DNA of 64,000 bases from a phage: sequence record OZ346164.1; one strand, 5' to 3'. Both the position numbers and the translations under genes were made by a program. Numbering within the stretch: position 1 is the first letter of the stretch; every line of letters begins with the position of its first letter. Shown in pieces: positions 2,807-59,540 of this stretch. The notes below the pieces were generated by a model. The model was not told where the DNA came from. It made no database searches and saw nothing but the letters and a program-made list of their open reading frames with translations.

Positions 2807-3352
2807 TTAAAAGTGCCCTTTTACTTGTGGAACATAAATTTCAAAGGTTGCTTTACCATCCTCTGATGGTTTTGACTGTACCTTTGTAAATACACGGTTA
2901 TCATACAGCTTCTCAAAGAAGTTTTCAAAAGGTAAATGCACAGTGGCCTCTTCAGTAACTTTATGGAAAACAGTATGGAACACCACACTAGCATATGGTA
3001 AAGCGTTGACAAGGATACCTGCACCACCAATTACAAAGATATCTTCATCAATAGAGCTATCAAGATACTTCAAAAATGCTCCAAATGACTCTTTACTGGC
3101 TTTAGCATACATTACATCATCTTTGCCAAAGTCTATGCCTAAGTATGGTACAGAATTTGTTAAGATGAGGTTTGCACGTTCTGGTAAAGGTTTACTACCC
3201 AGAGTCTTAAAAGTCTCATTACCCATGACTACTAAGTTATTTTTAGTGAGTCTCTTAAACTCTTGCATGTCCTGTTTATGTCGAGGCCACGGCATACCAG
3301 TCGGTGTACCAAATTCACCGTTTTCACCACTTGCAAATATTAGTTTAATCAT
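2807..3352 (-). CDS. folA: dihydrofolate reductase
   Basis: N-terminal MIKLIFA...GMPWP and VVMGNETFKTL motifs typical of DHFR; adjacent to thyA. Confidence 0.8.
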   Translation of the reverse strand: MIKLIFASGENGEFGTPTGMPWPRHKQDMQEFKRLTKNNLVVMGNETFKTLGSKPLPERANLILTNSVPYLGIDFGKDDVMYAKASKESFGAFLKYLDSSIDEDIFVIGGAGILVNALPYASVVFHTVFHKVTEEATVHLPFENFFEKLYDNRVFTKVQSKPSEDGKATFEIYVPQVKGHF

Positions 3353-3609
3353 TTTGTAAACCCTTTCTTAATGAACCAGTTGATGACACTCTTCACAAAT
3401 TTACTACGATGGTAGATAAAATGTGGAGAGGGTTGGTATGAACCATAAGCCCAGAAAGCGATAATTTCATTACACCCTGTGCATCGGGTACTTTCTTCAG
3501 CAATATGACCGTTGACTATTTCATTTACCTCACCTTGTAAGTCTGTACACCCACAATGTGGACAACGGATAGGTGTTCCATCAGACTCATAGCAGTGTTC
3601 AATTTTCAT
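3349..3609 (-). CDS. zinc-ribbon protein
   Basis: CPHCGC ... CTGCNE paired Cys motifs. Confidence 0.4.
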   Translation of the reverse strand: MKIEHCYESDGTPIRCPHCGCTDLQGEVNEIVNGHIAEESTRCTGCNEIIAFWAYGSYQPSPHFIYHRSKFVKSVINWFIKKGFTK

Positions 3610-7397: not shown

Positions 7398-7529
7398 GAT
7401 AGTCTACCTCTCTGTATGTTTTTAAATAGTGAGTGATGAGTTCTGGTAATTCACTACGTTTAACGTTTGAACGAAGAAGTGTCCAGTCAAAACCCTTACC
7501 AACCCTTCCCCAGAGACTGTACATTTTCT

Positions 7530-7763
7530 TCATAGCAACTCCAGAATATCAATACGTTCGCCTTTGAGTACTCCAGTACGGTCTTTTGCAATCTTACCGT
7601 CAACGATAAGGATGTGTGTAGACCTTAAAGCGTCGTTGTTAAAGGTTTTTACGAACTTGCTAGGCATGACTACAATGGACATCTCCTGAATTAACTCTGG
7701 AGTGTAGCAGTTATCATGAAGTTGCTGAATAACGTCTGCAAGTGTCATTTTTGATGTCTCCAA
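7530..7763 (-). CDS. hypothetical protein
   Basis: 77 aa ORF. Confidence 0.3.
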   Translation of the reverse strand: METSKMTLADVIQQLHDNCYTPELIQEMSIVVMPSKFVKTFNNDALRSTHILIVDGKIAKDRTGVLKGERIDILELL

Positions 7764-7954
7764 TATTCAATATCTACAAGTTCTTGTGCAATGCTTTTCA
7801 GATTACCTTTCAAGAAAACCTTCTCAGAACCTGAAAGAGATGAATTGTCAATTAACCTGTTCATTCTCTCAAACAACTTCTGCTTACGATTTTTGATAGT
7901 CTCCTTTGAAGCACCTTTCATCATCGCTGCATGGGTTCTTCCACGATGGCTCAT
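7745..7954 (-). CDS. hypothetical basic protein
   Basis: 69 aa ORF, Lys/Arg-rich. Confidence 0.3.
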   Translation of the reverse strand: MSHRGRTHAAMMKGASKETIKNRKQKLFERMNRLIDNSSLSGSEKVFLKGNLKSIAQELVDIEYWRHQK

Positions 7955-8005
7955 AAGCCCTCCTATATAAGATATAGTATAAGGTACTCTTCCATGAGCA
8001 CCTTG

Positions 8006-8539
8006 TCAACTTAGTTTTGCAAACTCTCCGTGGAGTTTAATAGCAGCTTCACAGTAAGCTTTATGGGCTTCTTCAGGTGTGTCATGGTGACCTAAAAACA
8101 TCTTCTTACCTTTATAACTTATCTGTGCGACCCACTTACCAGACTTCTTCTTAAGACTTACACCCTTGTACCCAGATTTATTGGTGACCGGTTTACCTTT
8201 ATTCCAAGCACTTTGAAAATCATCTGCTTCCCTTAAGTTTACAATCCTGTTGTCAAGTGAGTCTCCGTTGATATGGTCAATGATACCTTTTGGCATCTTG
8301 CCATACACGTAAAGCCATGCGAGTCTGTGTGCTTTATGTGCTTTCTTGTCAAAATAGATACTAACCTGTTTATGACCACTTGAATCAGTCTGGATATTAC
8401 CTGCCACCTTTCCTGCATAATTACTGTTAAAAACACTAACAGCTCTTGATTTACCTTCTCTACGAAGCCAAGTAAAGACCCCTGTTTCGGGGTCATAGTG
8501 CAGCAGCTCCTTTAAACGTTTTTGTAAAATTAAATCCAT
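8006..8539 (-). CDS. HNH homing endonuclease with AP2 DNA-binding domain
   Basis: IDHINGDSLDNRIVNLR HNH_3-like motif and SGYKGVS...WVAQI AP2-like motif; paralog of 18378..18893 (shared YDPETGVFTW). Confidence 0.75.
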   Translation of the reverse strand: MDLILQKRLKELLHYDPETGVFTWLRREGKSRAVSVFNSNYAGKVAGNIQTDSSGHKQVSIYFDKKAHKAHRLAWLYVYGKMPKGIIDHINGDSLDNRIVNLREADDFQSAWNKGKPVTNKSGYKGVSLKKKSGKWVAQISYKGKKMFLGHHDTPEEAHKAYCEAAIKLHGEFAKLS

Positions 8540-8542
8540 TAA

Positions 8543-9097
8543 TCAATGTACCTCATACCAGCTCTTACCAACCTTTGCTGTACCAGTTACAAGTGTTTCT
8601 TTCCTCAAACCTAAGTTTTTTGAAGCTTGTCCATACATCCAGTCAGCAATTGCTTTCATATCATGTGTCATACCCTCTGGACATTCCCAACTATTTTCAT
8701 CGTGATATGCCAGAAGTAACCTTGCTCCGATAGCTGGTTTTCGAGCATTCAGTTTTGTCAGGCCATCTTCACAGGCTTTTCTTGCTGCTAGGTTGATGGC
8801 CTCATTCTGAATCTGTGCTTCCGAACTCATCAGGAGGTAGTTCAGTAGTTTATGTGGAGATTTGCACCATATCCATGCTCCAGCGACCCTGATATAACCA
8901 CCTTTAGCAATTGAAGAATTCTTCCCAAAAACCTCTTCCAGAGCCTTTTTAGACGCCTTAAAATCGGCTTCTAAGCTATCAAGTAACTTCTTAATCTTTG
9001 GCAGACGCATATAGTAAGTTTGTTTAGTCAATGCACCTTCTTCCGTAGATGATGCCTTGATAGTTTTTGCAAACTTCTCGTCTCCAGCCCCGAACAA
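8543..9097 (-). CDS. DNA polymerase (family A), exon 2
   Basis: Begins LFGAGDEKF (second half of motif B) and contains LLAYHDENSWE (motif C HDE). Confidence 0.7.
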   Translation of the reverse strand: MFGAGDEKFAKTIKASSTEEGALTKQTYYMRLPKIKKLLDSLEADFKASKKALEEVFGKNSSIAKGGYIRVAGAWIWCKSPHKLLNYLLMSSEAQIQNEAINLAARKACEDGLTKLNARKPAIGARLLLAYHDENSWECPEGMTHDMKAIADWMYGQASKNLGLRKETLVTGTAKVGKSWYEVH

Positions 9098-9326
9098 TAC
9101 ATCTGGTCAATACACTCGCAAGGTGTACCAGTTCTCTTATGAACTTCTCCGCATTTCTACGGAGTGTCGGACTATATCACGTAGCAGTGGTGCTACCGTT
9201 GCACTTGGGATGGTCATTAGCTTACCACCCTACTCTACTCAGTTCATACGTTAAGTATGCTTTTCGATAGTCTCTGAACGTTCCTCTTAAGAGGCTTCGC
9301 TGCTGATTACCATATCTTTACAGACT
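9098..9326 (-). other. group I-like intron in DNA polymerase gene
   Basis: Minus strand carries GTTCAGAGACTA (R-like) and GATATAGTCCG (S-like) core elements; splits motif B; no ORF. Confidence 0.6.
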
Positions 9327-11539
9327 TAGGCTTCCAGCAATTCACAACGTTTTACATGCGCCACTGACGCATAAATGCCATTTTTGGCTTTCTTACGACC
9401 TTTTGTAATCTCGTGGAGAAGTTCCTCATCCTGTGTCTCCCTACAACGAACAATGTCTTCTTCCTTGTTCAGACCAAAGTAAATACTATTCAGTGTATGT
9501 GCATCAGTACCTGTGTAGACTTCATAGAGGTCATTCTCAGCATCATAACGCAGATACTTGTCAGTTTCTGGGTTAAGATACTTGTCAAGATGCTTGCAGT
9601 AGTATCTACCATCATCTTGCTTAGTGAACTCAACTGACTCTTTACCCTCAGTTACCGCTTTAGTGAAGTCTTCATCACCCATAAAGTTACAAAGAAGAAC
9701 TAGCTGGGCTGAGTTTTGGTCTACAGAGACAACGTTAGTACCTTCTTCACAAATCCACACCTCCCTCATAGGTGCTCCATAGACAGCAGCACCAGACGGT
9801 ACGTTTACAATACCATATTGTGTCATACGTCCAGTTGAAGTACCAAACACCATTGCACCAGCACTAAGGCGACCATCAGGACGAATCTGGTTCAACCAAC
9901 CTTTTTCATCATCTTTTGAGTTCTCAATAGTTCTACGTCGGTGCATCAAAGTATAGTACTTAGCAATCTTCTGTCCAAGCTCACCTTCAATCGTATCATA
10001 AGATGATTCAGTAAGTTTTGGTGAAGTACGGATTAAGCAAGGCTCAAGCAAATCTGTGTATTTCTTCACAGACCAGTTATGCTCAATGTACTGGACACCT
10101 TCATGCTCAACATAGCTCAAACCACACCGCTCAACCATTTCCTGCCACTTAGGATGCTTTGTAATCATCTTTTTATTGTCTTTGAAACGACAAACTTTGA
10201 TAGGGCGACCATCTGAGTCTTTCTTGTAATTCCAGTCATCTGGAATCCAACCAACTGATTTCAAGTAGTCTTTAACAACTGCTACCTGAGTCATACGAGA
10301 AACTTCAAACTCAATTGGTGTATATGGTGCATCAATCAAACCTGTGTAGCGACTTGACTCAAGTTCAAAGTGGTTAACAACGTGGCTGTTATAGTACTTC
10401 ACAGTTTTGACTGTTTTTACTGGCTTCCAGTCTTTGCATTTCTTACCAATCTTTGCGTTCAACTCATTGCAAATTGCACGAGCATCCTTCATTGCTACAA
10501 AACCTTCCTTGTACTCTTCACCAGTTACAGAGTTGGTTGGTGTATAGCAATTCCTTTTTTCAATGTTAAAAATCTTTGTAGTTGGCTTACCAAATGGTTT
10601 GATTTCGTATGTCTGCATCTCACCATTACGTACCTGCTGACGATACTTTGTCTTAGGGTACTTGGTAATTCTTTTCAGTCCATCTGCATGACCAAATGTT
10701 TCAACATACTCATTCCAAGCTTTTGCAAACTCTTCTCCAGTGACTTTACCTTTGGTCTTAATAGTTGGAGGAAGATGTGGTTCAACCTCTGAAGCAAGCT
10801 CATTAGTCAACTTGTCAAGTTCCTTTACATGGAACTCCATAAGCTCTTTATCAGCTTTCCAACCATTAATAGCTTGTTGACTCATCCAGAAAGATGTTTC
10901 TTTAGCTCGCATGTAGGTTTCATAAGTGTCTATGCCACACTTCTTAAGCTTGAGATACTCATTATCAAGTGCCCGTTTAGTTTTGGCGTTAATACGGATA
11001 TCTTCTACAACACGAGTGAAGATTTCTGCATTCCACACACCCCAATGTTCAATCTCTGGTTTACGAACACCAACACGAGCACCCCATGCAGCCAAGCCAT
11101 GAGCACCTTTATAACCCTTTGGAGTTGGTCTATCCATCCACTGAACACGAGACTGGATAAGAGAATCCTGAAAGAAATTACTCCACGGCTTACACTTTGG
11201 ATTATCAAAGTTCCATAAATCCGGTGCAATGTGATTGAAAACCCACCAGTCATAACCTAGACCATTATGAATGCAAAGACGTTTTGCCTTTAACGCAAAC
11301 TCAACACCTTCACGTAAGCCACCCTTAATGTACTTGGTATACTTGTGACCGAGGATAGGCTCATCTGTAAAGACCCATACAGGCGGCTCTTTATCGTCAG
11401 ATTTATAGTCTGCGAAAGCCATTACGTGCACTTTAGTGAACTCAAGGAGTAAACCATCAGTTTCTGTATCACCAACTAAATGTAAGTTTTTAAAATCTAC
11501 GTTTTCCATTTTTACTCCCTCTAAAATCATTAACCTCAT
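9326..11539 (-). CDS. DNA polymerase (family A), exon 1 incl. 3'-5' exonuclease
   Basis: Exo I motif DTETDGL, motif A-like VSVDQNSAQLVLL, ends RKKAKNGIYA (first half of motif B); annotated stop probably lies in intron. Confidence 0.8.
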   Translation of the reverse strand: MRLMILEGVKMENVDFKNLHLVGDTETDGLLLEFTKVHVMAFADYKSDDKEPPVWVFTDEPILGHKYTKYIKGGLREGVEFALKAKRLCIHNGLGYDWWVFNHIAPDLWNFDNPKCKPWSNFFQDSLIQSRVQWMDRPTPKGYKGAHGLAAWGARVGVRKPEIEHWGVWNAEIFTRVVEDIRINAKTKRALDNEYLKLKKCGIDTYETYMRAKETSFWMSQQAINGWKADKELMEFHVKELDKLTNELASEVEPHLPPTIKTKGKVTGEEFAKAWNEYVETFGHADGLKRITKYPKTKYRQQVRNGEMQTYEIKPFGKPTTKIFNIEKRNCYTPTNSVTGEEYKEGFVAMKDARAICNELNAKIGKKCKDWKPVKTVKTVKYYNSHVVNHFELESSRYTGLIDAPYTPIEFEVSRMTQVAVVKDYLKSVGWIPDDWNYKKDSDGRPIKVCRFKDNKKMITKHPKWQEMVERCGLSYVEHEGVQYIEHNWSVKKYTDLLEPCLIRTSPKLTESSYDTIEGELGQKIAKYYTLMHRRRTIENSKDDEKGWLNQIRPDGRLSAGAMVFGTSTGRMTQYGIVNVPSGAAVYGAPMREVWICEEGTNVVSVDQNSAQLVLLCNFMGDEDFTKAVTEGKESVEFTKQDDGRYYCKHLDKYLNPETDKYLRYDAENDLYEVYTGTDAHTLNSIYFGLNKEEDIVRCRETQDEELLHEITKGRKKAKNGIYASVAHVKRCELLEA

Positions 11540-16392: not shown

Positions 16393-16421
16393 TTGACAAT
16401 AGAGTATCAACAAATTAGAAT
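16393..16421 (+). promoter_or_regulatory. sigma70-like promoter
   Basis: TTGACA, 17 bp spacer, TAGAAT. Confidence 0.5.
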
Positions 16422-16457
16422 TGGTACTCTTCATAAATTGAGATAGAGGTTTAAATA

Positions 16458-17315
16458 ATGTCTAAAGTTGTTAAAATGAAAGCTCCGGTAGAGAAGTACA
16501 ACGGTACTGAACGTCAAACTCTGCGTTACCTGCTGAAAGATGTCTGGTTTTATTACCTGAACACTTCACCACGTCCGGGAAAAGGTAAGTCTATTGATAA
16601 GAAATTCCCAGGAAAAGATTGTAACTACAGCGTATCAATTCTGGCAGAAGACGGTAACAAACTGTTTAAAGAGTTTACTAAGTCTAAGAAAAATCCAGAA
16701 GGCTGGGATAAAGTTACTACTGAAGCAGTTGATGCAGATGACTTCGAAGAGAAGTTTGGTTGTAAACCACCTTTTGAAGCAGACACTTACTACATCTTGA
16801 AAGTAAGTCGTGCAGCAGCTTATAAAGATGGTGCTGTATGGACAGCTAAACAGTCATTCCCTGTAATGCTGATTGAAGAAGTAAATGGTAAGCGTGTAGC
16901 TGTTAAGCAGCCGATGAAGAAAATCAAAGCTCAAGCATCTGATAAACATGAAGATGACAAGAACTATGATGTAATTCATCCAGATATTGCAGTTGGCAAC
17001 GGTTCTTTTGGTAGTGTGATTCTTTCTACTCACTTCTACACTTTTGAGAACAATGTTCTGACAAAACCTATTCAGGAACAGTTTATCATTGACACTCTTG
17101 TACCTTACACTGGTGGTAACGGTGCTAATGGTGAGCCTGAACTGGATGAAGATGAACTGGCTATGCTTGGTCTTGATGGTGTTGAAGATAACGGTGAAAT
17201 CACTGAAGAAGACGCAACAGACCATAAACCTTCGAATGCTTCTGATGATGGTGATGATGAAGATTTACCAGACCCAGATGACGAAGAAGATGAAGACTTC
17301 GATACAGAAGACTAA
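16458..17315 (+). CDS. single-stranded DNA-binding protein (putative)
   Basis: Position in replication module and strongly acidic C-terminal tail DDEEDEDFDTED as in T7 gp2.5-type SSB. Confidence 0.45.
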   Translation: MSKVVKMKAPVEKYNGTERQTLRYLLKDVWFYYLNTSPRPGKGKSIDKKFPGKDCNYSVSILAEDGNKLFKEFTKSKKNPEGWDKVTTEAVDADDFEEKFGCKPPFEADTYYILKVSRAAAYKDGAVWTAKQSFPVMLIEEVNGKRVAVKQPMKKIKAQASDKHEDDKNYDVIHPDIAVGNGSFGSVILSTHFYTFENNVLTKPIQEQFIIDTLVPYTGGNGANGEPELDEDELAMLGLDGVEDNGEITEEDATDHKPSNASDDGDDEDLPDPDDEEDEDFDTED

Positions 17316-17377
17316 TCTCTAAAAGTTACTTTAAAGCCCTGTACTTAGTATGGGGCTTTTTCATATGGAGAGCCATA

Positions 17378-18424
17378 ATGGAGAAGTACACATTAACAAA
17401 ACTTCCCGATTCAGTTACACATGTTTTTATTGACTCTGACAGTATTGCCTATAAAGGTGCTTGTGTAGTTGAGAAAGCAAAGTATAAATATGTCAATAAA
17501 CTCACAGCAGAAGAATCTGAACCATTTGATAATGCGAAAGATGCTGCAAGATGGTTAGCAGACCAGAGAATCCTTGTGGAAGAACTTGGCCTGACATTTG
17601 ATGAAGATGAATGGGAAAGACAGACTTGGAAAGAAGCTAAGAGTGAAAAAGAAGCTATCATGGCTACTCAACAGGTTCTTCAGGAATGGCTTAAGGTTGT
17701 TGGTAAAGAGAGAATTTGGGTAGGTTATCTAACAGAGAAAGGTGTGCATAAGCATAAAGACATTAAAGGTCTTGAGCACCAATATCAAGGTAACCGTAAA
17801 GATGCTGTCACACCAACACACTTAGTTGCTTGTCGTGAGTATCTTCTGTCAAGACCAGAGTTCAAACTAATTCTTGATGGATTTGAAGCCGATTCTATCG
17901 TTATTGCTAAAGCTGAAAAGATGGGTAAAAAGGCTGCCTTGATGAGTATTGATAAAGACCTTCGTCAAGCTGAAGGGACTTACTGCATTGATATGACCTA
18001 TGAAAAGTCACCTTTGATTTTCATTGCTGACAACAACGTAGGTGAAATTTGGGATTGCCCAATAAAATCGACACCAAAAGCTAAGAAGACAGTTGGGGTA
18101 GGTTTTAAATTTCTTTGTTACCAAGCTGTGGCTGGTGATAATGCTGATAATTATTTTGGTTTAAAGGGCGTTGGTAAGGCTACTGTAATGAAAGCACTTG
18201 AAGGTAAAACCACCTACAAAGAGTGTCTTGATGCAATTTATGAGCTTTATGCTAAGAAAGAGTCATACACTTATGTCTCGTGGGATGGTCAAACAATTAC
18301 CAGAACACCTTTAGAGTTAATGCAGCAACACTTTTTCTTAGCTTATCAGGAAAGAAACAAGAAAGACGATTTTACTTTTGATAAGTATGGGTGGACACCA
18401 AATGTTAACTCAACAAACTCTTAA
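17378..18424 (+). CDS. 5'-3' exonuclease / flap endonuclease
   Basis: N-terminal HVFIDSDSIAYKGA resembles FEN/T5 D15 nuclease catalytic region. Confidence 0.55.
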   Translation: MEKYTLTKLPDSVTHVFIDSDSIAYKGACVVEKAKYKYVNKLTAEESEPFDNAKDAARWLADQRILVEELGLTFDEDEWERQTWKEAKSEKEAIMATQQVLQEWLKVVGKERIWVGYLTEKGVHKHKDIKGLEHQYQGNRKDAVTPTHLVACREYLLSRPEFKLILDGFEADSIVIAKAEKMGKKAALMSIDKDLRQAEGTYCIDMTYEKSPLIFIADNNVGEIWDCPIKSTPKAKKTVGVGFKFLCYQAVAGDNADNYFGLKGVGKATVMKALEGKTTYKECLDAIYELYAKKESYTYVSWDGQTITRTPLELMQQHFFLAYQERNKKDDFTFDKYGWTPNVNSTNS

Positions 18425-18893
18425 AGAGTACCTACATTATGACCCCGAAACAGGGGTCTTTACTTGGATTAAGAAATCTGCTAGACACACAAAAATTGGC
18501 TCTGTTGCAGGTACAAACTTAAGAGGGTATACCAGAATTTATTTGTTTGGTAAGGGCTATTATGCACATACCCTAGCCGTTCTGTATATGGATGGATACC
18601 TACCTGAGTGTGTTGACCATAAAAATCATGTAACACTAGACAATCGCTGGGTAAATCTTAGGGCATGTACGTTATCAGAGAACCAATGTAATAGGTTGCT
18701 CAATAAGAACAATAAATCAGGTGTTAAAGGTGTGTACTACAAAAAACAGTATGGTAAGTGGTCTACACAGATAACTTTTAAGAAGAGGGTTTACTTCTTC
18801 GGCAACTATGACACTATTGATGAAGCAGCAGAGGTTGTAAATAGGGAACGTCAACGTTTACACAAAGAGTTTGCTAATAAAGGTGATGAATGA
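18378..18893 (+). CDS. HNH homing endonuclease with AP2 domain
   Basis: VDHKNHVTLDNRWVNLR and SGVKGVYY...KWSTQI motifs; overlaps 3' end of exonuclease gene. Confidence 0.75.
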   Translation: MISMGGHQMLTQQTLKEYLHYDPETGVFTWIKKSARHTKIGSVAGTNLRGYTRIYLFGKGYYAHTLAVLYMDGYLPECVDHKNHVTLDNRWVNLRACTLSENQCNRLLNKNNKSGVKGVYYKKQYGKWSTQITFKKRVYFFGNYDTIDEAAEVVNRERQRLHKEFANKGDE

Positions 18894-19390
18894 GAAAAAT
18901 AAAAGGTTTTGGCAATTGCCCTGAATATGGACATTGGGTTTCACTATGTGGTGAAGTTGACCCAGCAAAGCACTTTGGTTTTGTCTACCTAGTGTACTGC
19001 AAAAAGACTGGACAGTACTATTTGGGTAAAAAACAGCTTAACAGTGTGACCAAAAGAAAAGTTGCTGGGAAGACTCGGAAGAAGATAGTCACTAAGGAAA
19101 GTGATTGGATGACTTATGAGACTTCTTCTGAGTATATTAAAAAAGATATTGAAAGCTTTGGAAAAGAATTTTTTGACTTTTACATTATTCAGACCTACTA
19201 CACAAAAGGTGGCCTAGTCTATGGTGAAGCAAACCTTCAACATAAATTCGATGTAATGACAAAAAGGATTGACTCGAAGCTCAGACTCTTCTACAATGCC
19301 AATATTGCAGCAATTAAGTTTATTACTAAAGAAACTTATGAAGATGCTGAAAAAAGAATCCATAAGGTAATGAAAGCAAACTGTGCTTGA
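18890..19390 (+). CDS. GIY-YIG endonuclease-like protein
   Basis: GFVYLVYCKKTGQYYLGKK matches GIY...YIG motif spacing. Confidence 0.5.
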   Translation: MRKIKGFGNCPEYGHWVSLCGEVDPAKHFGFVYLVYCKKTGQYYLGKKQLNSVTKRKVAGKTRKKIVTKESDWMTYETSSEYIKKDIESFGKEFFDFYIIQTYYTKGGLVYGEANLQHKFDVMTKRIDSKLRLFYNANIAAIKFITKETYEDAEKRIHKVMKANCA

Positions 19391-19396
19391 TAACTA

Positions 19397-19642
19397 TTGA
19401 GAGAGAATAAAATGTTTAACAAAAGTAAAGCTGTGAGTCATGTAGCAAAGGTTGACAGCAAGATTGAAGAACTTGAGCGCATTCTTGCAAATGCCAGAGA
19501 GTCAATAATTAAAGAAGTTGAAGCTGTTGAATCTCAAATGCAACACCTAATGCTTAAACGTCAAGAGTTACGTGAGCATCTGGAATATATTGAAACACGA
19601 GAGCTAAAGGTTAACAGATTTTTAAGGAGTCCAAATGTTTAA
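19397..19642 (+). CDS. hypothetical small protein
   Basis: 81 aa ORF. Confidence 0.3.
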   Translation: MRENKMFNKSKAVSHVAKVDSKIEELERILANARESIIKEVEAVESQMQHLMLKRQELREHLEYIETRELKVNRFLRSPNV

Positions 19643-20390
19643 CTCAAGAGAAGCAGTAAAAAACTGGAATCTTCGTTGTGGAAACACTCAAAAGCAACCT
19701 TACAGTGATGAGTATTGGGAATCTTTAAAATCCCAGTCTCTGTGTATGCTTGAAGAAGCAAAAGAGCTTGTAAAAGCAATTGAAGAGAAAGACCCCATTG
19801 AGACACTGGATGCTCAGGCAGATTTGCAATATGTTCTTGATGGTCTGATTTATCTGTCACAACATGACCATAACGGTGCTATGAAAGCTGTTTGCCATAA
19901 TAATGACCTGAAATACACAGATAACTATGAAGAAGCTTTAAAACGTCTTGCAGATATTGAAAAGCGTACTGGTCAAGAGTGTATTATCAGAATGTCAGTA
20001 GTTGATGGTAAAGAGTGGTATGCAATTGTTCGTGCAGCAGATGGGAAGATTATGAAGCAATCAAATCTCCCTAAAGTACAGCTTGGTGAATACATTGTAG
20101 AACTTGAAAGCCAAGAACTTTTTGTGGTAGTATCTGAGACATGCGTTATCTGCAAAGGTATTGTATGTAGCTTAAAGGATTTGGGTGTAGATGGTTTTGT
20201 AGAAGTTAATCCAATTACCTCTAAAGCAGATAAAGATTTCTGTAAAGAGAATGGACTATGGATTGCAGATATTGTCTACTATGATGGTGAGCAGTTCCAT
20301 GTAACCTCATACCCGAAACTGAATTATGATGCTAATAACCTGAAGTGCTGGTTAAAAGGGGTTGGTTATAATGGATTCACAGAACATTAA
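19635..20390 (+). CDS. hypothetical protein
   Basis: 251 aa ORF. Confidence 0.4.
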   Translation: MFNSREAVKNWNLRCGNTQKQPYSDEYWESLKSQSLCMLEEAKELVKAIEEKDPIETLDAQADLQYVLDGLIYLSQHDHNGAMKAVCHNNDLKYTDNYEEALKRLADIEKRTGQECIIRMSVVDGKEWYAIVRAADGKIMKQSNLPKVQLGEYIVELESQELFVVVSETCVICKGIVCSLKDLGVDGFVEVNPITSKADKDFCKENGLWIADIVYYDGEQFHVTSYPKLNYDANNLKCWLKGVGYNGFTEH

Positions 20391-20694
20391 TAAAGAGGGT
20401 GTGGCTCAGAAGAGCCACTTCTCAAACTACAATATTTCTATGACGGTGTTTATGAATGACCCGTTACTAGAAAAATATGGTGAGACTCCAGATACACTTC
20501 TGGACAATGAACAAGTTTTAAAAGCAGTCCTGTACAAATATGGGATTGATATTGAGAAAGAGTATTCTTTTGAAATCTGCCAACACAGAAATACTTTTGG
20601 GAAAGTTGTAATGGCTCCACTCTTCATGGGTGTAGAAAGGACTGACTATGGTTGGTTATATCTAAAAAGAAACTTGGAGAAATACCGTGTCTAA
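20362..20694 (+). CDS. hypothetical protein
   Basis: 110 aa ORF. Confidence 0.3.
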   Translation: MVIMDSQNINKEGVAQKSHFSNYNISMTVFMNDPLLEKYGETPDTLLDNEQVLKAVLYKYGIDIEKEYSFEICQHRNTFGKVVMAPLFMGVERTDYGWLYLKRNLEKYRV

Positions 20695-25175: not shown

Positions 25176-26375
25176 ATGAACAAAGTACAGATTATTAAAA
25201 AGAATGGCTCACTTGAAGAACCTGATATCAAAAAAGTTTTAGCAGCAGTCACAAAGTCAGCTAACAGAGTTGGTTATAAAGAGCTTCCACCAGATGTTAC
25301 TCAAGCTCTTGAGTCAGCATTTATGAGGATTCTGGTAAAGTCCACTAAGCAGAATAATTTGCTAATTTCGGTAAATGATATTCACAGTATTGTTGAGGGT
25401 GCTTTGGCAGAAGTCAATCACGAGATTTATGAGTCTTACTCAACATATAGAAATTACCGTAAAGAGGTTGCTCAAAATTGGGATGAACTCTACCAGAAGA
25501 CCAAAGATACACTCTTCTTAGGCGACCGAGAAAACGCTAATTTTGACAGCAGTTTAATTTCTACAAAAGGCTCAATTATTCGTGGTTACCTGACTAAAGA
25601 AATCTTTAAACAGTACCATTTAACACCAGAGGAACTTGAAGCCATTGAAAAAGGATTTATCTATATCCATGATTTAAGAGACCTAATTTTTGGTGGTATC
25701 AACTGTTGCCTGTTTGACATTGGTAAAGTCCTGAAAGGTGGCTTTGAAATGTCTGGCATTGAATATTGTGAACCGAAGTCTGTGCTGTCAGCCTTACAGG
25801 TTATTGGTGATGTAGTTCTTTCAGCAACTGCACAGCAATTTGGTGGCTTTACTTTAGCAGAGATTGATAAGGTACTTGTACCGTATGCTAAGAAGTCTCT
25901 ACGTTACCATGCTGAAAAAGCAACAGCTTATGGTATTCCTAAAGAACATTACCACAACTATGTCATGGAGCAGCTACAGATTGAATTAACTCAAGGTTTT
26001 CAGTCTCTTGAAATGAAGCTCAATACTGTGCCTTGTAGCCGTGGTGATTTTGCATTCACAACTTTGACATTCGGGTTACTTGACTCAGATATGTCTAATG
26101 AAGATAACCGACTGCAATACATGATTGCGAGCACTCTCCTAGATGTTCGTATGAATGGACAAGGTAAGAGCAAGAAACCTGTTGTATTCCCTAAACTGGT
26201 TTATATTTATGACCAGAAGAGACACAATGAGAATATCTGTCAAGGCCACCTGTACAGTAAAGCTATTGAGTGTTGCTCTAAAGCTATGTATCCAGATTTC
26301 TTAAGTGTATCTGGACATGGTGCTGTAGCAGAGGCTTTTGAGCGTTCTGGCAAGGTAATTTCCCCGATGGGTTAA
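25176..26375 (+). CDS. nrdD: anaerobic ribonucleotide reductase, exon 1
   Basis: ATP-cone N-terminus; reading frame interrupted, resumes at 26678. Confidence 0.75.
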   Translation: MNKVQIIKKNGSLEEPDIKKVLAAVTKSANRVGYKELPPDVTQALESAFMRILVKSTKQNNLLISVNDIHSIVEGALAEVNHEIYESYSTYRNYRKEVAQNWDELYQKTKDTLFLGDRENANFDSSLISTKGSIIRGYLTKEIFKQYHLTPEELEAIEKGFIYIHDLRDLIFGGINCCLFDIGKVLKGGFEMSGIEYCEPKSVLSALQVIGDVVLSATAQQFGGFTLAEIDKVLVPYAKKSLRYHAEKATAYGIPKEHYHNYVMEQLQIELTQGFQSLEMKLNTVPCSRGDFAFTTLTFGLLDSDMSNEDNRLQYMIASTLLDVRMNGQGKSKKPVVFPKLVYIYDQKRHNENICQGHLYSKAIECCSKAMYPDFLSVSGHGAVAEAFERSGKVISPMG

Positions 26376-26677
26376 CAAGCTCTATAGCTCATCTAAAACG
26401 TGCCTAAACAGGGAAACTCTACAGATGTAGACAATCCTGTGCTAAATGATGTACGATGTAAGAAACTATACAACATAGGAGTCTTACATGCCAAATAACT
26501 TCGAATATGAGTTTGAATACATCTAAATGCCGAACGACTAACCGTGATGAATGTAGCGGTGTAGGGTCAAGCGACTCGAAATGGTACGCTACTTAGAAAT
26601 AAGTAGAAGATATAGTCTGGACTTACTGGCGACAGTAAGCAGCTTGAATAAAGCGGGGTAAGCTTAGCGAACTTACT
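26376..26677 (+). other. group I-like intron in nrdD
   Basis: About 300 nt without ORF, contains CAGGGAA/ATCCTGT (P4-like) and GACTAACC/AGATATAGTCT (P7 R/S-like) elements. Confidence 0.6.
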
Positions 26678-27636
26678 TGAACAACAAGTGTAGAGCATTT
26701 TTATCACCATACCATAACGAACATGGTGAAGAGTTTTATGTAGGTCGTGCTAACATTGGTGCTGTATCTTTGAACTTACCAATGATTTATCAGTACACCA
26801 AAGAGAATGGCTTAGATTTCTGGAAAGAGCTTGATAAGTACCTAGAAATGATTCGCAGCTTCCACAAGAAACGTTACGAAATGATTGCTAATATGCCAGC
26901 AAGTTCTAACCCTCTTGCATTCACACAGGGTGGTCTGTACAAAGGGAATAAGAAACCTACTGACAAGGTTGGCTGGGATATCGTGAAGTCCTTCACAGCT
27001 TCTTTTGGGGTTACTGCGCTTGATGAGCTATCTGTTCTTGCTGAAGGTAAACGACTCCATGAAGTTGGAAGCTGTAGTTTTGCATATGATGTTCTGGCAT
27101 ACATTAACATGAAAACTGAAGAGTTTAAGAACGAAGATGGCTTCTTGTATGCGGTATATGGCACTCCAGCAGAATCACTTTGTGGAACTCAGTTAAAACA
27201 GTTCAGAGATATGTTTGGCGTTATTAAAGGTGTCTCTGACAAGGAATACTTTACAAACAGTTTCCATATGAATGTTGCAGCAGACATCTCACCATTTGAG
27301 AAGCAGGACTTAGAAGAGCCATTCTTCCATATCTGTAGAGGTGGTAGAATCCAGTATGTAAGGGTAGCTAACCCAGAAAACTTAACAGCACTTAAAAGTT
27401 GTATTACAAGAGGGATGTTGAAAGGTTTCTATCAGGGGCTTAACTTTGACTTAGCAATCTGTGAACATTGTGGTAACAGACCAAAGGCTGATGTTGAAGA
27501 ATGTGAGGTTTGCCATTCACATGATATCTCTGTGATTAACAGGGTGTGCGGGTACTTGTCATTCACAAAAATTAAAGGTCAGTCTCGAATGAATGACGCT
27601 AAGATGGCAGAAATTAAGGATAGGGTTTCTATGTAA
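26678..27636 (+). CDS. nrdD: anaerobic ribonucleotide reductase, exon 2
   Basis: C-terminal glycyl-radical motif RVCGYLSF and Cys4 zinc site CEHCG...CEVCH. Confidence 0.8.
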
Positions 27637-29412: not shown

Positions 29413-29693
29413 TGAGAGAGACTAAAATGGGAATTTTAGGTAATATGAAAGCTGGCTTCTTGAAGGCACTGGCAAAAGCAGCAGCAATCATTTCTATGAC
29501 TGGAAAGCAGGTTGGTGTAGATGCTTCAGCAGTTGCACAAGTTCTTACAAGCCAAATTGAACAGCAACCTTACATCTACGTAGGCCGTGGCAAAGGTGGT
29601 AAAAAACAAGCACATCGACCAACTGGTGCAGCAGCAATTAAACGTGCAGCTAAAAAAGCTCGTAACCGTAAACGTAATAAGAAGGCTAAATAA
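29412..29693 (+). CDS. hypothetical basic protein
   Basis: 93 aa, highly basic C-terminus. Confidence 0.35.
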   Translation: MRETKMGILGNMKAGFLKALAKAAAIISMTGKQVGVDASAVAQVLTSQIEQQPYIYVGRGKGGKKQAHRPTGAAAIKRAAKKARNRKRNKKAK

Positions 29694-29695
29694 TC

Positions 29696-30016
29696 ATGAG
29701 CAAAGTTTATAACACTCGCAAATTACAGATTTTCGTACTGTGCCAGTTTATGGCTAAAGAATACAACTTCTACTATTGCGGCACAGGTTTTATTAGCGAC
29801 GATGATGGTTCATACCTACCATTCAAAGAAGCTGTAAAACTCTTTAATGAAGAGAAAAGCTCTAAGAAAGATATTGAAAAGGTTAAGCTAACTTACAGTA
29901 AGAAAGATAAGAAGATTATCTGCCTAGATAACTTTGTAAAAGTTACTGGAGAAGCAAAAGAGTTTATGGATGAGAGTGAGATTTCATTCACAAGCATCTT
30001 GAAAGTAGCTCAGTAA
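29696..30016 (+). CDS. hypothetical protein
   Basis: 106 aa ORF followed by terminator. Confidence 0.35.
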   Translation: MSKVYNTRKLQIFVLCQFMAKEYNFYYCGTGFISDDDGSYLPFKEAVKLFNEEKSSKKDIEKVKLTYSKKDKKIICLDNFVKVTGEAKEFMDESEISFTSILKVAQ

Positions 30017-30027
30017 ACAGATACTAT

Positions 30028-30057
30028 AAGGGAACTGTAAAGGTTCCCTTTTTATTT
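30028..30057 (+). terminator. rho-independent terminator
   Basis: GGGAAC...GTTCCC hairpin plus T-run. Confidence 0.6.
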
Positions 30058-30180
30058 TGGAGATGATATGTATCTGTCAAACCTAAAACGTTCTGCTGCA
30101 ATGTCAGTGTTAAGACTTAGCTTTGAGGAACGTCAAGAGTTCATTGACTCCACCAATACGACCCCTCAAACTCCAATCAC

Positions 30181-30453
30181 ATGATTCTCTGGAATCGTGA
30201 AAGTACTCGTGAAAGAGTACTATTCCGTTATTACCCACACTACACTATAGATAACCTGTATGAATGTTTTGTTGTGAAGAACACCATTGCAGTGCTCAAT
30301 AAGCTTTGTAGATACACAGGTAGTCAATCCTTCACATTAGGCCACCACAAACCTGTTACAAAAGGTGGTGAACATCACTGTGCAAACTGGTTTATTCAGA
30401 CTAAAGCTGATAACCAGAAGCAAGGAGATAACCTTTTAAGTGCCCTAAGATGA
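30181..30453 (+). CDS. small HNH endonuclease
   Basis: GHHKPVTKGGEHHCANW...NQKQ matches HH..GG..N..N HNH pattern. Confidence 0.5.
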   Translation: MILWNRESTRERVLFRYYPHYTIDNLYECFVVKNTIAVLNKLCRYTGSQSFTLGHHKPVTKGGEHHCANWFIQTKADNQKQGDNLLSALR

Positions 30454-30573
30454 CCTATGAAGAGCAAGAGAGATATATCAAAAATAATATGCCAGATGTG
30501 CTTGACAACAACTATACAGATTTGGCAATATCTCTCCTGTTGAAGTTCGAGACAGTTTATAGGGCAACTTATA

Positions 30574-30852
30574 ATGGCTAAAGAAAAGTGGGAGATTTTA
30601 CCATTAGTCAGTGAAGGAGGTAATGGTTGTGAAATGTACATGATACGTGGTCATGTTCCAGAGCCAATTGCACTTGAGATGGTAAACAACTTTACAGATG
30701 GTTCTTACAAAGACTTAGGCGAACCAACTGTCAAGCAACAATGGGTTAAACCTGTACCAGACAGCACAGGTAACTGTAGTGTACTTTATCACGTTGTAGA
30801 CCCTGCAAAATGCAAATCTGCAATGGCAGTAACAAACGTAACTTTTGATTGA
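30574..30852 (+). CDS. hypothetical protein
   Basis: 92 aa ORF. Confidence 0.3.
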   Translation: MAKEKWEILPLVSEGGNGCEMYMIRGHVPEPIALEMVNNFTDGSYKDLGEPTVKQQWVKPVPDSTGNCSVLYHVVDPAKCKSAMAVTNVTFD

Positions 30853-31745
30853 GAGAGAAAACTATGAAAACTGTTATTGAAGCCGTCATCACCGCTCAAG
30901 AGAAATTCTTCCACACAGAAAAATTTAATATCATTCAATTCCCATCTGGAGAAATTGGTGGAAACTTCTCTGAAGATTTTGTTAAGTTTACTGAGCGTAA
31001 TGCCGGTAAGATTGATAATGTTATAATTACTGTACAGGGATATGACAAAGATACACTGTTTGCATTAGCTTTGGCTAAGGATGCCGTTGACAGTCTTGTT
31101 CCCCAGAAATCAGCGATGAAAACCGTTGTTTTCGGGTTCTTACCAAATGCTCGATATGACCGCCACATGTTCAAAGGTGATGCAGCAGCACTGAAAGTCT
31201 TTGCCAACCTAGTTAATGCAATGGGTTTTGATGCAGTATGTGCTCTTGACCCTCATAGTAATGTTGCAGAAAACTTATTTAAGTGCTTTCAAAGCATGAA
31301 GCAAAAAGATGTGGCAGTACACTTTGCAAGTGACCCACGCATTGATTTCTTGGTAGCCCCAGATGCAGGTGCAGCTAAGAAGACTGAAGATACCGCTAAA
31401 GAGGTGGATAAACCGTATATCACAATGTCTAAGGTGCGCAATCTTAAGACTGGAGAAATCACTGGTATGCGAATCCTAGACGATGTTGATTTGACCGATA
31501 AAACTGTCATGATTCTTGATGATATCTGTGATGGTGGTCGAACCTTCGTAGAGGCAGCTAAACACCTACGTGAAGCAGGTGCAAAACGTGTGGAACTCTA
31601 TGTAACTCATGGTATTTTCTCTAAAGGTGTTGAAAACTTACTTGACAACGGTATTGACCATATCTACACTACAAACACCTTAGGTGAAGCTAAAGACCGT
31701 GGCTTAACACATTACGCCCAAGTTACTGTAGCAACCATTGATTGA
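30849..31745 (+). CDS. ribose-phosphate pyrophosphokinase-like protein (candidate ADP-ribose pyrophosphate synthetase)
   Basis: PRTase motif ILDDICDGGRT and ALDPHS region typical of Prs family. Confidence 0.7.
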   Translation: MREKTMKTVIEAVITAQEKFFHTEKFNIIQFPSGEIGGNFSEDFVKFTERNAGKIDNVIITVQGYDKDTLFALALAKDAVDSLVPQKSAMKTVVFGFLPNARYDRHMFKGDAAALKVFANLVNAMGFDAVCALDPHSNVAENLFKCFQSMKQKDVAVHFASDPRIDFLVAPDAGAAKKTEDTAKEVDKPYITMSKVRNLKTGEITGMRILDDVDLTDKTVMILDDICDGGRTFVEAAKHLREAGAKRVELYVTHGIFSKGVENLLDNGIDHIYTTNTLGEAKDRGLTHYAQVTVATID

Positions 31746-58630: not shown

Positions 58631-58708
58631 TCTCTGTTTAGCTCAGCTTGGTAGAGCGTTCCGTTTGGGGCGGTAAGGCCGGAGGTTCAAGTCCTCCAAC
58701 AGAGACCA
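58631..58708 (+). tRNA. tRNA-Pro (anticodon UGG)
   Basis: 7 bp acceptor, D stem GCTC/GAGC, loop TTTGGGG, T arm GGAGG-TTCAAGT-CCTCC. Confidence 0.75.
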
Positions 58709-58715
58709 AATTAAT

Positions 58716-58793
58716 GTTCCAGTAGACAAAATGGTATAGTCACCACTCTTTCAAAGTGGATATCTGAGGGTTCAAATCCCTTCTGGAACGCCA
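58716..58793 (+). tRNA. tRNA-Glu (anticodon UUC)
   Basis: Acceptor GTTCCAG/CTGGAAC, anticodon stem CCACT/AGTGG, loop CTTTCAA, encoded CCA. Confidence 0.75.
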
Positions 58794-58883
58794 GTTTTGA
58801 CAGAAGACCAATTACAGCAAACTTAATCTACTCATCTGAAAGTTAATCGGACAAAGAAGATATTTGGTCTGGTCATTAAGAAT

Positions 58884-58960
58884 TGCGGGTATAGAGAAAG
58901 GGCGTCTCACATGTCTCATTAGCATGGTATCGGCAGGTTCGACTCCTGCACCCGCCTCCA
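58884..58960 (+). tRNA. tRNA with anticodon CAU (Met or Ile2), 1-72 mismatch
   Basis: Loop CTCATTA, T arm GCAGG-TTCGACT-CCTGC, acceptor pairs 2-7 only. Confidence 0.6.
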
Positions 58961-59042
58961 AATTTACAGAAGACCGTTTACAGCAATATTTATTAAATTT
59001 TTAGCGGAAAAATTGAAAGATACGGTCTGGTAATACTAAATA

Positions 59043-59120
59043 TGGTTAGGAAGCACATAAGGTATGTGCGGTCGCCTGTTAAGCGAATGGCACAGGGTTC
59101 GAATCCCTGACTAACCGCAA
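59043..59120 (+). tRNA. tRNA-Asn (anticodon GUU)
   Basis: D stem GCAC/GTGC, loop CTGTTAA, T arm CAGGG-TTCGAAT-CCCTG. Confidence 0.7.
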
Positions 59121-59128
59121 AATTAAAT

Positions 59129-59216
59129 GTGTCGTTATCCCGTAGATGGTAGCGGTGGGGACTGTAAATCCCTTGTCATTGAGACTCGGTAGGTTCGACT
59201 CCTACACGGCACACCA
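59129..59216 (+). tRNA. tRNA-Tyr (anticodon GUA), long variable arm
   Basis: Acceptor GTGTCGT/ACGGCAC, loop CTGTAAA, about 15 nt variable arm, encoded CCA. Confidence 0.75.
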
Positions 59217-59221
59217 ATAAA

Positions 59222-59298
59222 GGCTATGTAGTTTAACTGGAGAAAATACTCCCCTGTCACGGGAGATGATGTGAGTTCAAGTCTCATCGTAGCCGCCA
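59222..59298 (+). tRNA. tRNA-Asp (anticodon GUC)
   Basis: Acceptor GGCTATG/CGTAGCC, stem CTCCC/GGGAG, loop CTGTCAC, encoded CCA. Confidence 0.75.
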
Positions 59299-59499
59299 AT
59301 TTTGAGAGGGCTATTTAGCCCCTCCCTTAAAGAGTTCTTACGAGTATTCTTTAAAGGAGCAGAAGACCAAATACAGCAAGAATGTATGATATTTTCAAGC
59401 CAATTCAATTTTGAAAAATTTAAAACTTGGTCTGGCTCAACAAATTTACAGAAGACCGTTTACAGCAAAACTTAAACAATCTATTTCTCGGTAAAGAAA

Positions 59500-59540
59500 A
59501 GGCGAAGGTTCGATTCCTTCACTCGGCAGAGGTCGAGTTG
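59500..59540 (+). ncRNA. tRNA-like T-arm plus acceptor minihelix (not a full tRNA)
   Basis: GAAGG-TTCGATT-CCTTC T-arm-like hairpin directly followed by ACTCGGC-AGAG-GTCGAGT hairpin and D-loop-like GTTGGTGTAATGGTAG. Confidence 0.4.

Follow-up and report, generated by a model that had tools for sequence, protein, structure and literature searches.

A putative HNH-AP2 homing endonuclease gene occupies a polymorphic slot beside a probably domesticated GIY-YIG nuclease gene in a Felixounavirus genome

The window, that is, the whole 64,000-nucleotide stretch of DNA analysed here, is a genome of the genus Felixounavirus (Felix O1-like phages, subfamily Ounavirinae), and its 16400-20400 region was matched by 259 phage records, almost all belonging to Felixounavirus or close Ounavirinae relatives. 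The four endonuclease ORFs listed by a sequence-only reading of this genome were all found where they had been placed: an HNH-AP2 ORF at 18378-18893 (plus strand, 171 aa from a TTG start as delimited mechanically), a GIY-YIG ORF at 18890-19390 (plus strand, ATG start, 166 aa), an HNH-AP2 paralogue ORF at 8006-8539 (minus strand, 177 aa), and a small "HNH" ORF at 30181-30453 (plus strand, 90 aa). Describing them as clustered was generous, since two of the genes adjoin but all four are spread over 22 kb. Domain searches detected HNH_3 in both HNH-AP2 ORFs and a GIY-YIG domain in the third, while no Pfam HNH match was obtained for 30181-30453. The 18378-18893 ORF overlaps, as had been read, the 3′ end of the 5′-3′ exonuclease gene (17378-18424, plus strand), which was identified by a phrog_107 exonuclease match (6.8e-66) and a weak Pfam 5_3_exonuc match. 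A scan for promoters and terminators between 17200 and 19800 gave the same counts as shuffled sequence.

The true start of the HNH-AP2 gene is likely the ATG at 18402 (163 aa) rather than the TTG at 18378, a choice made because of the relatives and the comparison with the paralogue. The gene (18402-18893, plus strand) overlaps the exonuclease stop codon by 23 nt and the ATG of the GIY-YIG gene by 4 nt (ATGA). Pfam HNH_3 was found in 18378-18893 at 1.2e-11 (44.4 bits, curated cut-off 24.8), and the AP2 match (4e-4, 20.9 bits) lay below the Pfam cut-off of 33.3; the C-terminal AP2 region aligns with that of the paralogue, whose AP2 domain passes (1.2e-12), and the Sf14 orthologue carries an InterPro AP2/ERF annotation. 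The 18402-18893 gene also matched phrog_99 (7e-69), and the HNH motif D72-H73...N81...N93 is intact in the window protein and present in all alleles. The paralogy of the two HNH-AP2 genes was borne out by 41% identity (BLASTP E=2e-39) and by the HYDPETGVFTW segment occurring in both. We read 18402-18893 as a genuine free-standing homing endonuclease gene of the HNH_3/AP2 type, referred to below as the window-type (W) allele. Within this allele class, dN/dS was 0.04-0.05 at a dS of 0.26-0.59, compared with a backbone dS of 0.07-0.13; purifying selection thus acts on the allele class of the window.

Alignment of filled and empty sites revealed that the insert is approximately 485 bp long, lies between the exonuclease and GIY-YIG genes, and is missing from JK55, UAB_Phi87, SUSP1, and others. 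It provides the last ~7 codons of the exonuclease gene, whose product ends in ..WTPNVNSTNS* in the window vs. ..WEPCMNED* in phages with an empty site, and it restores the overlap between the stop codon and the start of the gene that follows. The slot was empty in ~165 of 252 related records, as indicated by full matches to an empty-junction probe; 21 records contained the window-type allele (at least 80% coverage) and 41 the Felix O1-type allele, all these counts being drawn from phylogenetically non-independent phages. At least three allele classes with 55-58% amino acid identity occupy the same slot with identical boundaries, and the first 22 residues are common to the otherwise divergent alleles. 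As far as the compared genomes indicate, the site between the exonuclease and GIY-YIG genes is a long-standing polymorphic one.

Polymorphism was not confined to the insert. The left flanking block (type A, 17860-18385), which is partially linked to the HNH insert, showed 78-80% identity to the type B phages vs. 95-99% in the backbone, and it is bimodal database-wide: 97 records were at least 90% identical, and nearly all others were near 80%. The linkage is broken in recombinants of both kinds, JK55 and REP7 having an A-type left flank with an empty slot, and HY02 having the window-type HNH gene next to a B-type left flank. The right block (type A′, 18894-19050), which is the 5′ end of the GIY-YIG gene, was 77-85% identical to the empty-site and V-allele phages, compared with 96-98% for the remainder of the GIY-YIG gene. 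It was at least 90% identical in 53 records, a W or F allele being present in all among the matches listed, so this block is tightly linked to these two alleles. Altogether the flanks are dimorphic over ~0.5 kb on the left and ~0.15 kb on the right, the two haplotypes being as divergent as different genera, and the dimorphism is repeated in Mooglevirus (Sf14 vs. Mijalis). The wV8-type allele is located in "empty-type" flanks (TP8), so a phage can carry an HNH gene without divergent flanks. The divergence of the flanks appears consistent with homing accompanied by co-conversion. Polarising haplotypes A and B by outgroups failed, as both were ~79-82% identical to the outgroups. Distribution and flank patterns of the same kind could also come from ordinary recombination combined with repeated loss.

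The GIY-YIG-like ORF (18890-19390) proved to be a gene for a real SegE-type nuclease (Pfam 1.1e-26, I-TevI fold) consisting of the nuclease domain only. The conserved Tyr/Tyr/Glu/Asn set is present with invariant catalytic-type residues. Clear conservation is not seen for the canonical Arg that follows the YIG motif, where Lys47 and Lys48 are found instead. No further Pfam match indicated a DNA-binding domain (NUMOD3, NUMOD1, or HTH) in this protein, where 27 residues follow the nuclease domain; in the family, which comprises 2200 representatives, NUMOD3 occurred in 19 of 66 sampled members. A PDB sequence search with the protein gave nothing significant. One copy of the gene was present in each of 298 records, that is, in every related record detected, and its position after the exonuclease gene is kept in Felixounavirus, Mooglevirus, Suspvirus, Kolesnikvirus, and the Hafnia phages. 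Its dN/dS (0.035-0.05) was as low as that of the exonuclease gene. Being single-copy, syntenic, under strong purifying selection, and without a DNA-binding domain in its product, the gene behaves as a fixed core gene rather than an active mobile one, and we consider it most likely that it encodes a nuclease domesticated to serve the phage. Candidate roles are the breakdown of host or competitor DNA and the processing of replication and recombination intermediates. In the annotation of EC6 the gene is in two pieces, and for this reason it may be dispensable.

The 90-aa ORF at 30181-30453, which had been taken for a small HNH gene, is instead the middle fragment of a disrupted gene. The conserved gene of ~160-171 aa (phrog_3500; orthologues garuso gp51 and Mordin gp062) spans 30068-30581 on the plus strand, and a three-way DNA alignment with garuso and Mordin located 1-nt deletions near 30150 and 30443, by which it is distributed over three frames in the window. 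The fragment matched phrog_3500 at 2.7e-49, spanning positions 39-125 of 170. Pfam searches with the fragment and with the intact orthologues gave no match at E<=10, and a PDB sequence search with an intact orthologue gave nothing significant. A conserved HNH-like motif (GHHKP..KGGEHH..NW..DNQKQG) is visible, and a weak PHROG HNH match (phrog_2214, 1e-4) was obtained. The AF2 model of the gene product, built from four sequences only, had a pLDDT of 52 and was unusable. The surrounding region (29600-31000) was covered to at least 80% in 224 of 252 records. The orthologue of 29696-30016 is labelled "putative HNH homing endonuclease" in garuso, a label that we rejected because Pfam gives only DUF7390.

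These results bear on the proposal of the sequence-only reading that all four ORFs are selfish homing endonuclease genes, active at present and directed against replication genes. It draws support from the membership of the GIY-YIG ORF in the SegE family of T4-type homing endonucleases, from GenBank relatives labelled "GIY-YIG homing endonuclease", and from the HNH-like motif and PHROG match of the small ORF. Nevertheless, a GIY-YIG gene that is syntenic in at least five lineages with a dN/dS of ~0.04 and encodes no DNA-binding domain, and a small ORF that is frameshifted, embedded in a widely conserved region, and without Pfam HNH support, both conflict with it. Ongoing selfish activity is thus plausible for the two HNH-AP2 genes, which are sporadic in close relatives, but not for the other two, whose conservation in relatives fails the mark that the proposal itself had set for active selfish elements; likewise, comparison with related phages, which it had put forward as a check, found the 18378-18893 slot often empty but the GIY-YIG gene in place in every related record detected. 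The distribution data largely refute the proposal as a whole, and we regard it as very unlikely.

The paralogue (8006-8539, minus strand) is a second free-standing HNH_3-AP2 homing endonuclease gene, in which HNH_3 (9.1e-15) and AP2 both exceed the Pfam curated cut-offs. As stated earlier from the letters alone, it sits after polymerase exon 2, its start lying 4 nt past the C-terminal exon of the family A DNA polymerase gene (8543-9097, minus strand; phrog_6375 7.2e-84, weak Pfam DNA_pol_A match). It is patchy in relatives, and the region downstream of the polymerase is highly mosaic, coverage reaching at least 80% in just 49 of 258 records. The two introns mentioned in the same reading are both real group I introns, scoring above the Rfam RF00028 gathering score of 50. 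One interrupts the DNA polymerase gene at approximately 9102-9429 (minus strand; Rfam match 9147-9429, 61.7 bits), and the 267 nt absent from the intron-less polymerase gene of HY02 map to ~9102-9368. The other (26258-26639, plus strand, 54.6 bits) splits nrdD, the anaerobic ribonucleotide reductase gene, and is flanked by exon ORFs at 25176-26375 and 26677-27636, both with Pfam NRDD. No ORF for an intron-encoded homing endonuclease was found in either intron (~270-380 nt).

In the "collaborative homing" of the cyanophage psbA intron and F-CphI, a free-standing endonuclease acts together with an ORF-less group I intron. The window resembles this arrangement in having an ORF-less intron in the polymerase gene and an HNH gene directly downstream. 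However, HY02, SP116, and Felix O1 lack the polymerase intron. HY02 has the same HNH gene behind an intron-less polymerase (96.8% nucleotide identity over the matched polymerase/HNH region), and in Felix O1 and SP116 the intron-less polymerase is followed by a similar-sized gene at the HNH position. The HNH gene of HY02 without the intron rules out obligate collaborative homing; the intron and the endonuclease gene are not obligately paired here.

Mobility of the HNH-AP2 gene is inferred here from distribution and flank patterns only. On these data, we consider it quite probable that a homing gene of the HNH-AP2 type occupies a polymorphic slot beside a domesticated GIY-YIG gene, the 30181 ORF being a fragment of a frameshifted gene. 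In a mixed infection, the HNH enzyme would cut genomes without the HNH gene at or near the exonuclease/GIY-YIG junction, possibly in the initial ~150 nt of the GIY-YIG gene, a location suggested by the tighter linkage of this flank to the HNH gene. Recombinational repair off the HNH-carrying genomes would then transfer both the gene and the markers beside it (intron-less homing with co-conversion), and the paralogue would act likewise downstream of the DNA polymerase gene.

It could be argued instead that the HNH-AP2 gene lacks mobility, or has lost it, and encodes an accessory or regulatory DNA-binding nuclease that some lineages kept and others lost by deletion, the flanks reflecting ordinary mosaic recombination between phage lineages. 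Such a role would fit the purifying selection within the allele class, which a decaying selfish element need not show, as well as the existence of AP2 domains that are pure DNA binders (PMC10448857), and empty recombinants such as JK55 show that the gene can be lost via recombination. Against this, the same clean junction is found at empty sites of several genera, where the exonuclease keeps its native C-terminus, so that the empty state is ancestral and did not arise by independent deletions. Moreover, three divergent alleles share exactly the same boundaries, the peak of divergence coincides exactly with the slot in two genera, the catalytic HNH motif has been preserved, and the synonymous divergence of the HNH gene exceeds that of the backbone, as expected if it moves between backbones. 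We therefore hold a non-mobile HNH gene to be unlikely and prefer homing.

The proximity of the two nuclease genes also permits a reading in which they form a "HEG island", the GIY-YIG protein still cutting related phages or other competitors via a targeting partner and the HNH gene piggy-backing on it or targeting its 5′ end. In favour of this, translational coupling joins the two neighbouring genes, linkage to the HNH alleles is tightest in the flank formed by the 5′ part of the GIY-YIG gene, and HEG islands have been proposed for other phages (PMC10448857). The GIY-YIG gene is, however, equally conserved in the majority of genomes, which have no HNH neighbour; neither a partner nor, by Pfam, a DNA-binding domain was found for its product; and there are no cargo genes between the two nucleases. 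A joint island of this kind seems extremely improbable. We tentatively entertain another relationship between the neighbours, in which the GIY-YIG protein would be a domesticated homing endonuclease with a core function and the 5′ end of its gene may be a battleground, or even the target, of the competing HNH-AP2 alleles inserted just upstream. If true, the homing site of a selfish element would be linked to a formerly selfish gene.

Free-standing homing endonucleases of the T4 type, SegF being one with co-conversion of flanking markers, provide a close frame for this slot. SegG, as cited in PMC10448857, is a further comparator with co-conversion. Like SegB (PMC2330249) and MobE (PMC2790892; reviewed in PMC2988022), the window HNH gene is intergenic and missing in close relatives; its enzyme, too, would be expected to cut alleles that lack the endonuclease gene close to where it is inserted, and its localised flank divergence suggests that flanks are inherited along with the gene as in T4-type systems. 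It differs in combining HNH_3 with AP2, in place of the T4-type GIY-YIG plus NUMOD or the MobE-type HNH modules, and in that several divergent alleles compete for one slot. The GIY-YIG protein resembles the SegE family (Pfam PF19835) and the I-TevI catalytic domain in profile, fold, and the Tyr/Tyr/Glu/Asn set, but it lacks a NUMOD3 or helix-turn-helix DNA-binding extension, and its gene is fixed, syntenic, and strongly constrained across the subfamily rather than sporadic.

HNH-AP2 homing endonuclease genes form an established family, with members in phages, cyanobacteria, and protists (Magnani, Sjolander & Hake 2004, as cited in PMC10448857). These have an N-terminal HNH_3 motif followed by a C-terminal AP2 domain and, like the window gene, are small, free-standing between conserved genes, patchy, and present as several paralogues per genome. 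The window gene differs from them in nothing essential, apart from its AP2 match falling below the Pfam cut-off. For Felix O1, the reported number of HNH copies is six (PMC3185647). Near-identical genes already bear the annotation "HNH (homing) endonuclease" in VpaE1, pinkbiff, HY02, and others, so the finding of the gene itself is ordinary; in the literature searched, we found no biochemical characterisation of an Ounavirinae HNH-AP2 protein. Felixounaviruses with and without the HNH gene whose backbones are 97-99% identical (window-type vs. JK55, tootiki, and UAB_Phi87) would be a convenient system for studying possible homing by HNH-AP2 enzymes. Regarding annotation, many records wrongly label the GIY-YIG gene "NAD synthetase"; the name "GIY-YIG homing endonuclease" probably credits it with too much mobility, and the 90-aa ORF is best annotated as belonging to a disrupted gene. 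In phages, recombination boundaries are marked by nuclease genes (PMC10448857). The exonuclease/GIY-YIG junction is a hot spot of recombination, and its flanks should be left out of phylogenies.

A 30-nt stretch encoding YDPETGVFTW (18438-18467, plus strand) is identical to 8468-8497 on the minus strand in the paralogue and is invariant in the Felix O1 and Mijalis alleles, too. It contains a 6-bp GC hairpin (18441-18458) followed by TTTACTT, which was considered as a functional RNA or DNA element in the 5′ region of the HNH gene. Among 86 distinct sequences coding for YDPETGVFTW in viral contigs, six form the full stem, where ~1/16 is expected by chance; a stem at chance frequency argues against general selection for the hairpin, and the candidate was rejected. 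The lineage-specific conservation of the 30-mer possibly reflects gene conversion between the paralogues.

All four ORFs that the sequence-only reading had proposed as homing endonuclease genes were recovered: the HNH gene at 18378–18893 (+), its suggested paralogue at 8006–8539 (−), a GIY-YIG gene at 18890–19390 (+) and a small ORF at 30181–30453 (+). The paralogy of the first two was upheld (41% identity, E=2e-39, HYDPETGVFTW in both), and PHROG assigned both to phrog_99, ‘HNH endonuclease’ (about 1e-70), while a search within the window for a third HNH paralogue found none. Their supposed HNH-AP2 architecture was borne out in part: Pfam HNH_3 scored above cut-off in both genes, and AP2 passed clearly in 8006–8539 but stayed below cut-off in 18378–18893. 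TTG 18378 simply opens the longest ORF; the conserved protein begins with MLTQQTLKEY at ATG 18402, the start chosen in the Mijalis, EC6, SWJM-02, TP8 and Sf14 records, and its distance from HYDPETG agrees with that in the paralogue. Despite 41% protein identity, the two genes have an identical 30-nt stretch, TATGACCCCGAAACAGGGGTCTTTACTTGG, at 8468–8497 (−) and 18438–18467 (+), which encloses a 6-bp GC hairpin. The alleles of Felix O1 and Mijalis have this stretch unchanged as well, while adjacent synonymous sites are variable; across the wider HNH family the hairpin is no more frequent than chance predicts. Gene conversion between the paralogues is a possible source of the invariance.

HNH-AP2 endonucleases are treated as a recognised homing endonuclease family in PMC10448857, with reference to Magnani et al. 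2004; six HNH copies were reported in Felix O1 (PMC3185647), and near-identical genes are labelled ‘HNH homing endonuclease’ or ‘GIY-YIG homing endonuclease’ in GenBank (e.g. pinkbiff). Thus, the finding is real, yet already known in kind and sequence. What is added here is the exact anatomy of the HNH insertion site, the allele classes and flank haplotypes, and the finding that the GIY-YIG and small ‘HNH’ genes are conserved rather than sporadic, the latter being frameshifted in the window.

The 4-kb region around the HNH/GIY-YIG pair matched 259 phage records (best identity 97.4%), nearly all from Felixounavirus or its near relatives in Ounavirinae. Locally, the Felix O1 gene order is kept: primase/helicase, two small ORFs, a 285-aa protein, the 5′–3′ exonuclease (17378–18424), [HNH], GIY-YIG, an 81-aa protein, MazG and further genes, then nrdA. 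The region also matched, at 82–96% identity, two entries named as Campylobacter phages (A132/A126; MG065664.1, MG065668.1) and one named as a Staphylococcus phage, all probably mislabelled or contaminated. Elsewhere in the window, Rfam matches marked a plus-strand cluster of about 24 tRNA genes (58632–63553), a usual feature of Felix O1-like phages.

Alignment with JK55, UAB_Phi87 and SUSP1, which have no HNH gene, defined an insertion of about 485 bp between the exonuclease and GIY-YIG genes. In such empty genomes the exonuclease ends in KYNWEPCMNED and its stop codon overlaps the GIY-YIG ATG. In filled genomes the final codons are swapped for KYGWTPNVNSTNS, the HNH ATG lies 23 nt upstream of the new exonuclease stop, and the HNH stop restores the ATGA overlap with the GIY-YIG start. 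The expected sporadic distribution was confirmed, since a probe for the empty junction matched over its full length in about 165 of 252 records (an estimate from the 182 records with at least 80% coverage, less the filled sites that appeared as two-piece matches among the rows sampled). The window-type allele (W) was found in 21 records (at least 80% coverage), the Felix O1-type (F) in 41, and a third class, V/M (wV8, typing phage 8, Mijalis), in further records. The three proteins are mutually just 55–58% identical, with identical boundaries and first 22 residues, and W-type and V/M-type alleles each occur in both Felixounavirus and Mooglevirus (Sf14, Mijalis). The W-class gene is under purifying selection (dN/dS 0.04–0.05), and its dS of 0.26–0.59 is far above that of the backbone gene mazG (0.07–0.13), as expected for a functional gene moving between backbones.

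Sliding identity over 5 kb in 15 genomes showed a backbone 95–99% identical, with a drop confined to the DNA adjoining the insertion site. Identity fell to 78–80% in the left flank (17860–18385, the final 0.5 kb or so of the exonuclease gene) and to 77–85% in the right flank (18900–19050, approximately the first 150 nt of the GIY-YIG gene). Each block exists as two haplotypes, A or B on the left and A′ or B′ on the right, whose divergence is that seen between genera. In the sample, A/A′ flanks (the window's type) accompanied the W or F allele in all seven carriers, and B/B′ flanks were present in the V carrier and in three phages with an empty site. Recombinants also occur: JK55 and REP7, both with an empty site, have a type-A left flank that changes to B within about 25 nt of the junction, and in HY02 the W allele lies between a B-type left and an A′-type right flank. 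Both flanks were bimodal database-wide: the left was at least 90% identical in 97 records and near 80% in nearly all others; the right reached at least 90% in 53, with a W or F allele in all among the matches listed. A similar local peak of divergence separates the Mooglevirus phages Sf14 (W) and Mijalis (M), whose identity is 95% in the 5′ part of the exonuclease gene, 88% in the left flank, 56% in the HNH body, 81% in the right flank and 96% in the remainder of the GIY-YIG gene. Judged from sequence comparison, this is the pattern that free-standing homing endonucleases make by co-conversion of flanking markers, as described for the T4 Seg and Mob enzymes (PMC2988022, PMC2330249, PMC2790892). 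It also agrees with the position of nuclease genes at recombination boundaries in other phages (PMC10448857); that gene conversion linked to homing endonucleases troubles the alignment of large phage genomes is already recognised (PMC8594841). That the right flank is the more tightly linked to the HNH gene suggests that the enzyme would cut at the exonuclease/GIY-YIG junction or within the 5′ part of the GIY-YIG gene.

The GIY-YIG assignment of 18890–19390 was supported by Pfam (SegE_GIY-YIG, 1.1e-26), but the view of this gene as a sporadic selfish element was not. Searched alone, it was present as a single copy in each of 298 records, Erwinia (Kolesnikvirus) and Hafnia phages among them, and in every locus inspected its immediate upstream neighbour was the exonuclease gene or, where present, the HNH insert. 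Its dN/dS of 0.035–0.05 over genus-level divergence equals the low value of the exonuclease gene. Its distribution and constraint are those of a core gene. An exhaustive profile search gave 2200 representatives of the family; among 66 sampled members Y44, G46, K48, W73, Y76, S79, E113 and N136 were invariant and G30, F31 and Y33 near-invariant. NUMOD3 was present in 19 of these 66, and NUMOD1 or helix-turn-helix modules in others; none of the three was found in the window protein, and a 270-aa relative (43% identity) has NUMOD3. The confident AlphaFold model (pLDDT 94.9) matched the I-TevI catalytic domain best (7.4), followed by PD-T4-3 (6.6), the UvrC N-terminal domain (5.0), T4 endonuclease II (4.7) and R.Eco29kI (4.3). 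The domain call is therefore right, and the name ‘NAD synthetase’ (phrog_447), given to this gene in many GenBank/RefSeq records (e.g. locus L001, 3500–4000), is wrong, having neither sequence nor fold support. Most economically, the gene would descend from a Seg-like endonuclease, domesticated and with the nuclease domain alone; that this fixed nuclease may have acquired a core function is the sole mildly novel point. The EC6 record (locus L008, 2992–3493) gives two overlapping ORFs for this gene (2992–3255 and 3218–3493), pointing to either a frameshift or an error of sequencing in a gene otherwise universally intact.

The two introns reported earlier were confirmed by Rfam as group I introns, interrupting the family-A DNA polymerase gene (9147–9429, −) and nrdD (26258–26639); neither contains an ORF. 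The polymerase intron boundaries are approximate, as the Rfam match does not coincide with the 267-nt gap relative to HY02 (about 9102–9368). The paralogue 8006–8539, placed after polymerase exon 2, proved to be a genuine HNH_3-AP2 gene; it begins 4 nt after that exon, in a highly mosaic region (7400–9700, at least 80% covered in only 49 of 258 records). The intron (9102–9429, −) is absent from HY02, SP116 and Felix O1. HY02, 96.8% identical to the window over the matched polymerase/HNH region, has an intron-less polymerase gene followed by an HNH gene of the 8006–8539 type, and the uninterrupted polymerase genes of Felix O1 and SP116 are each followed by a gene of similar size, annotated in Felix O1 as a T7 gene 3.8 counterpart. 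From these arrangements the intron and the downstream endonuclease are independent elements, consistent with the statement that Felix O1 has no introns (PMC3185647).

The small ORF at 30181–30453 did not stand as a separate 90-aa HNH gene. When garuso gp51 (160 aa) and Mordin gp062 (171 aa) were aligned with the window, the ORF proved to be the middle piece of one gene at about 30068–30581, which two 1-nt deletions near 30150 and 30443 split into three reading frames here. The frameshifts reflect either a pseudogene in this isolate or a sequencing/assembly error. Nor is the gene sporadic: this phrog_3500 gene is conserved in Felixounavirus and Mooglevirus (160–171 aa), and the surrounding 1.4 kb (29600–31000) was at least 80% covered in 224 of 252 records. 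A conserved motif in its product, GHHKP..KGGEHH..NW..DNQKQG, recalls a His-Me finger; no Pfam model matched the product, the PHROG match of the small ORF was weak and the structure model was unusable. In vB_Si_35FD a deletion of about 720 bp (region homologous to 30020–30850) removes the gene, and SP2 SHa-2019 (MW362867.1) has apparent DNA methylase genes in its place, so the position is not fully invariant. The garuso orthologue of the 106-aa ORF at 29696–30016 is labelled ‘putative HNH homing endonuclease’, while its only Pfam match is DUF7390 (1.1e-16).
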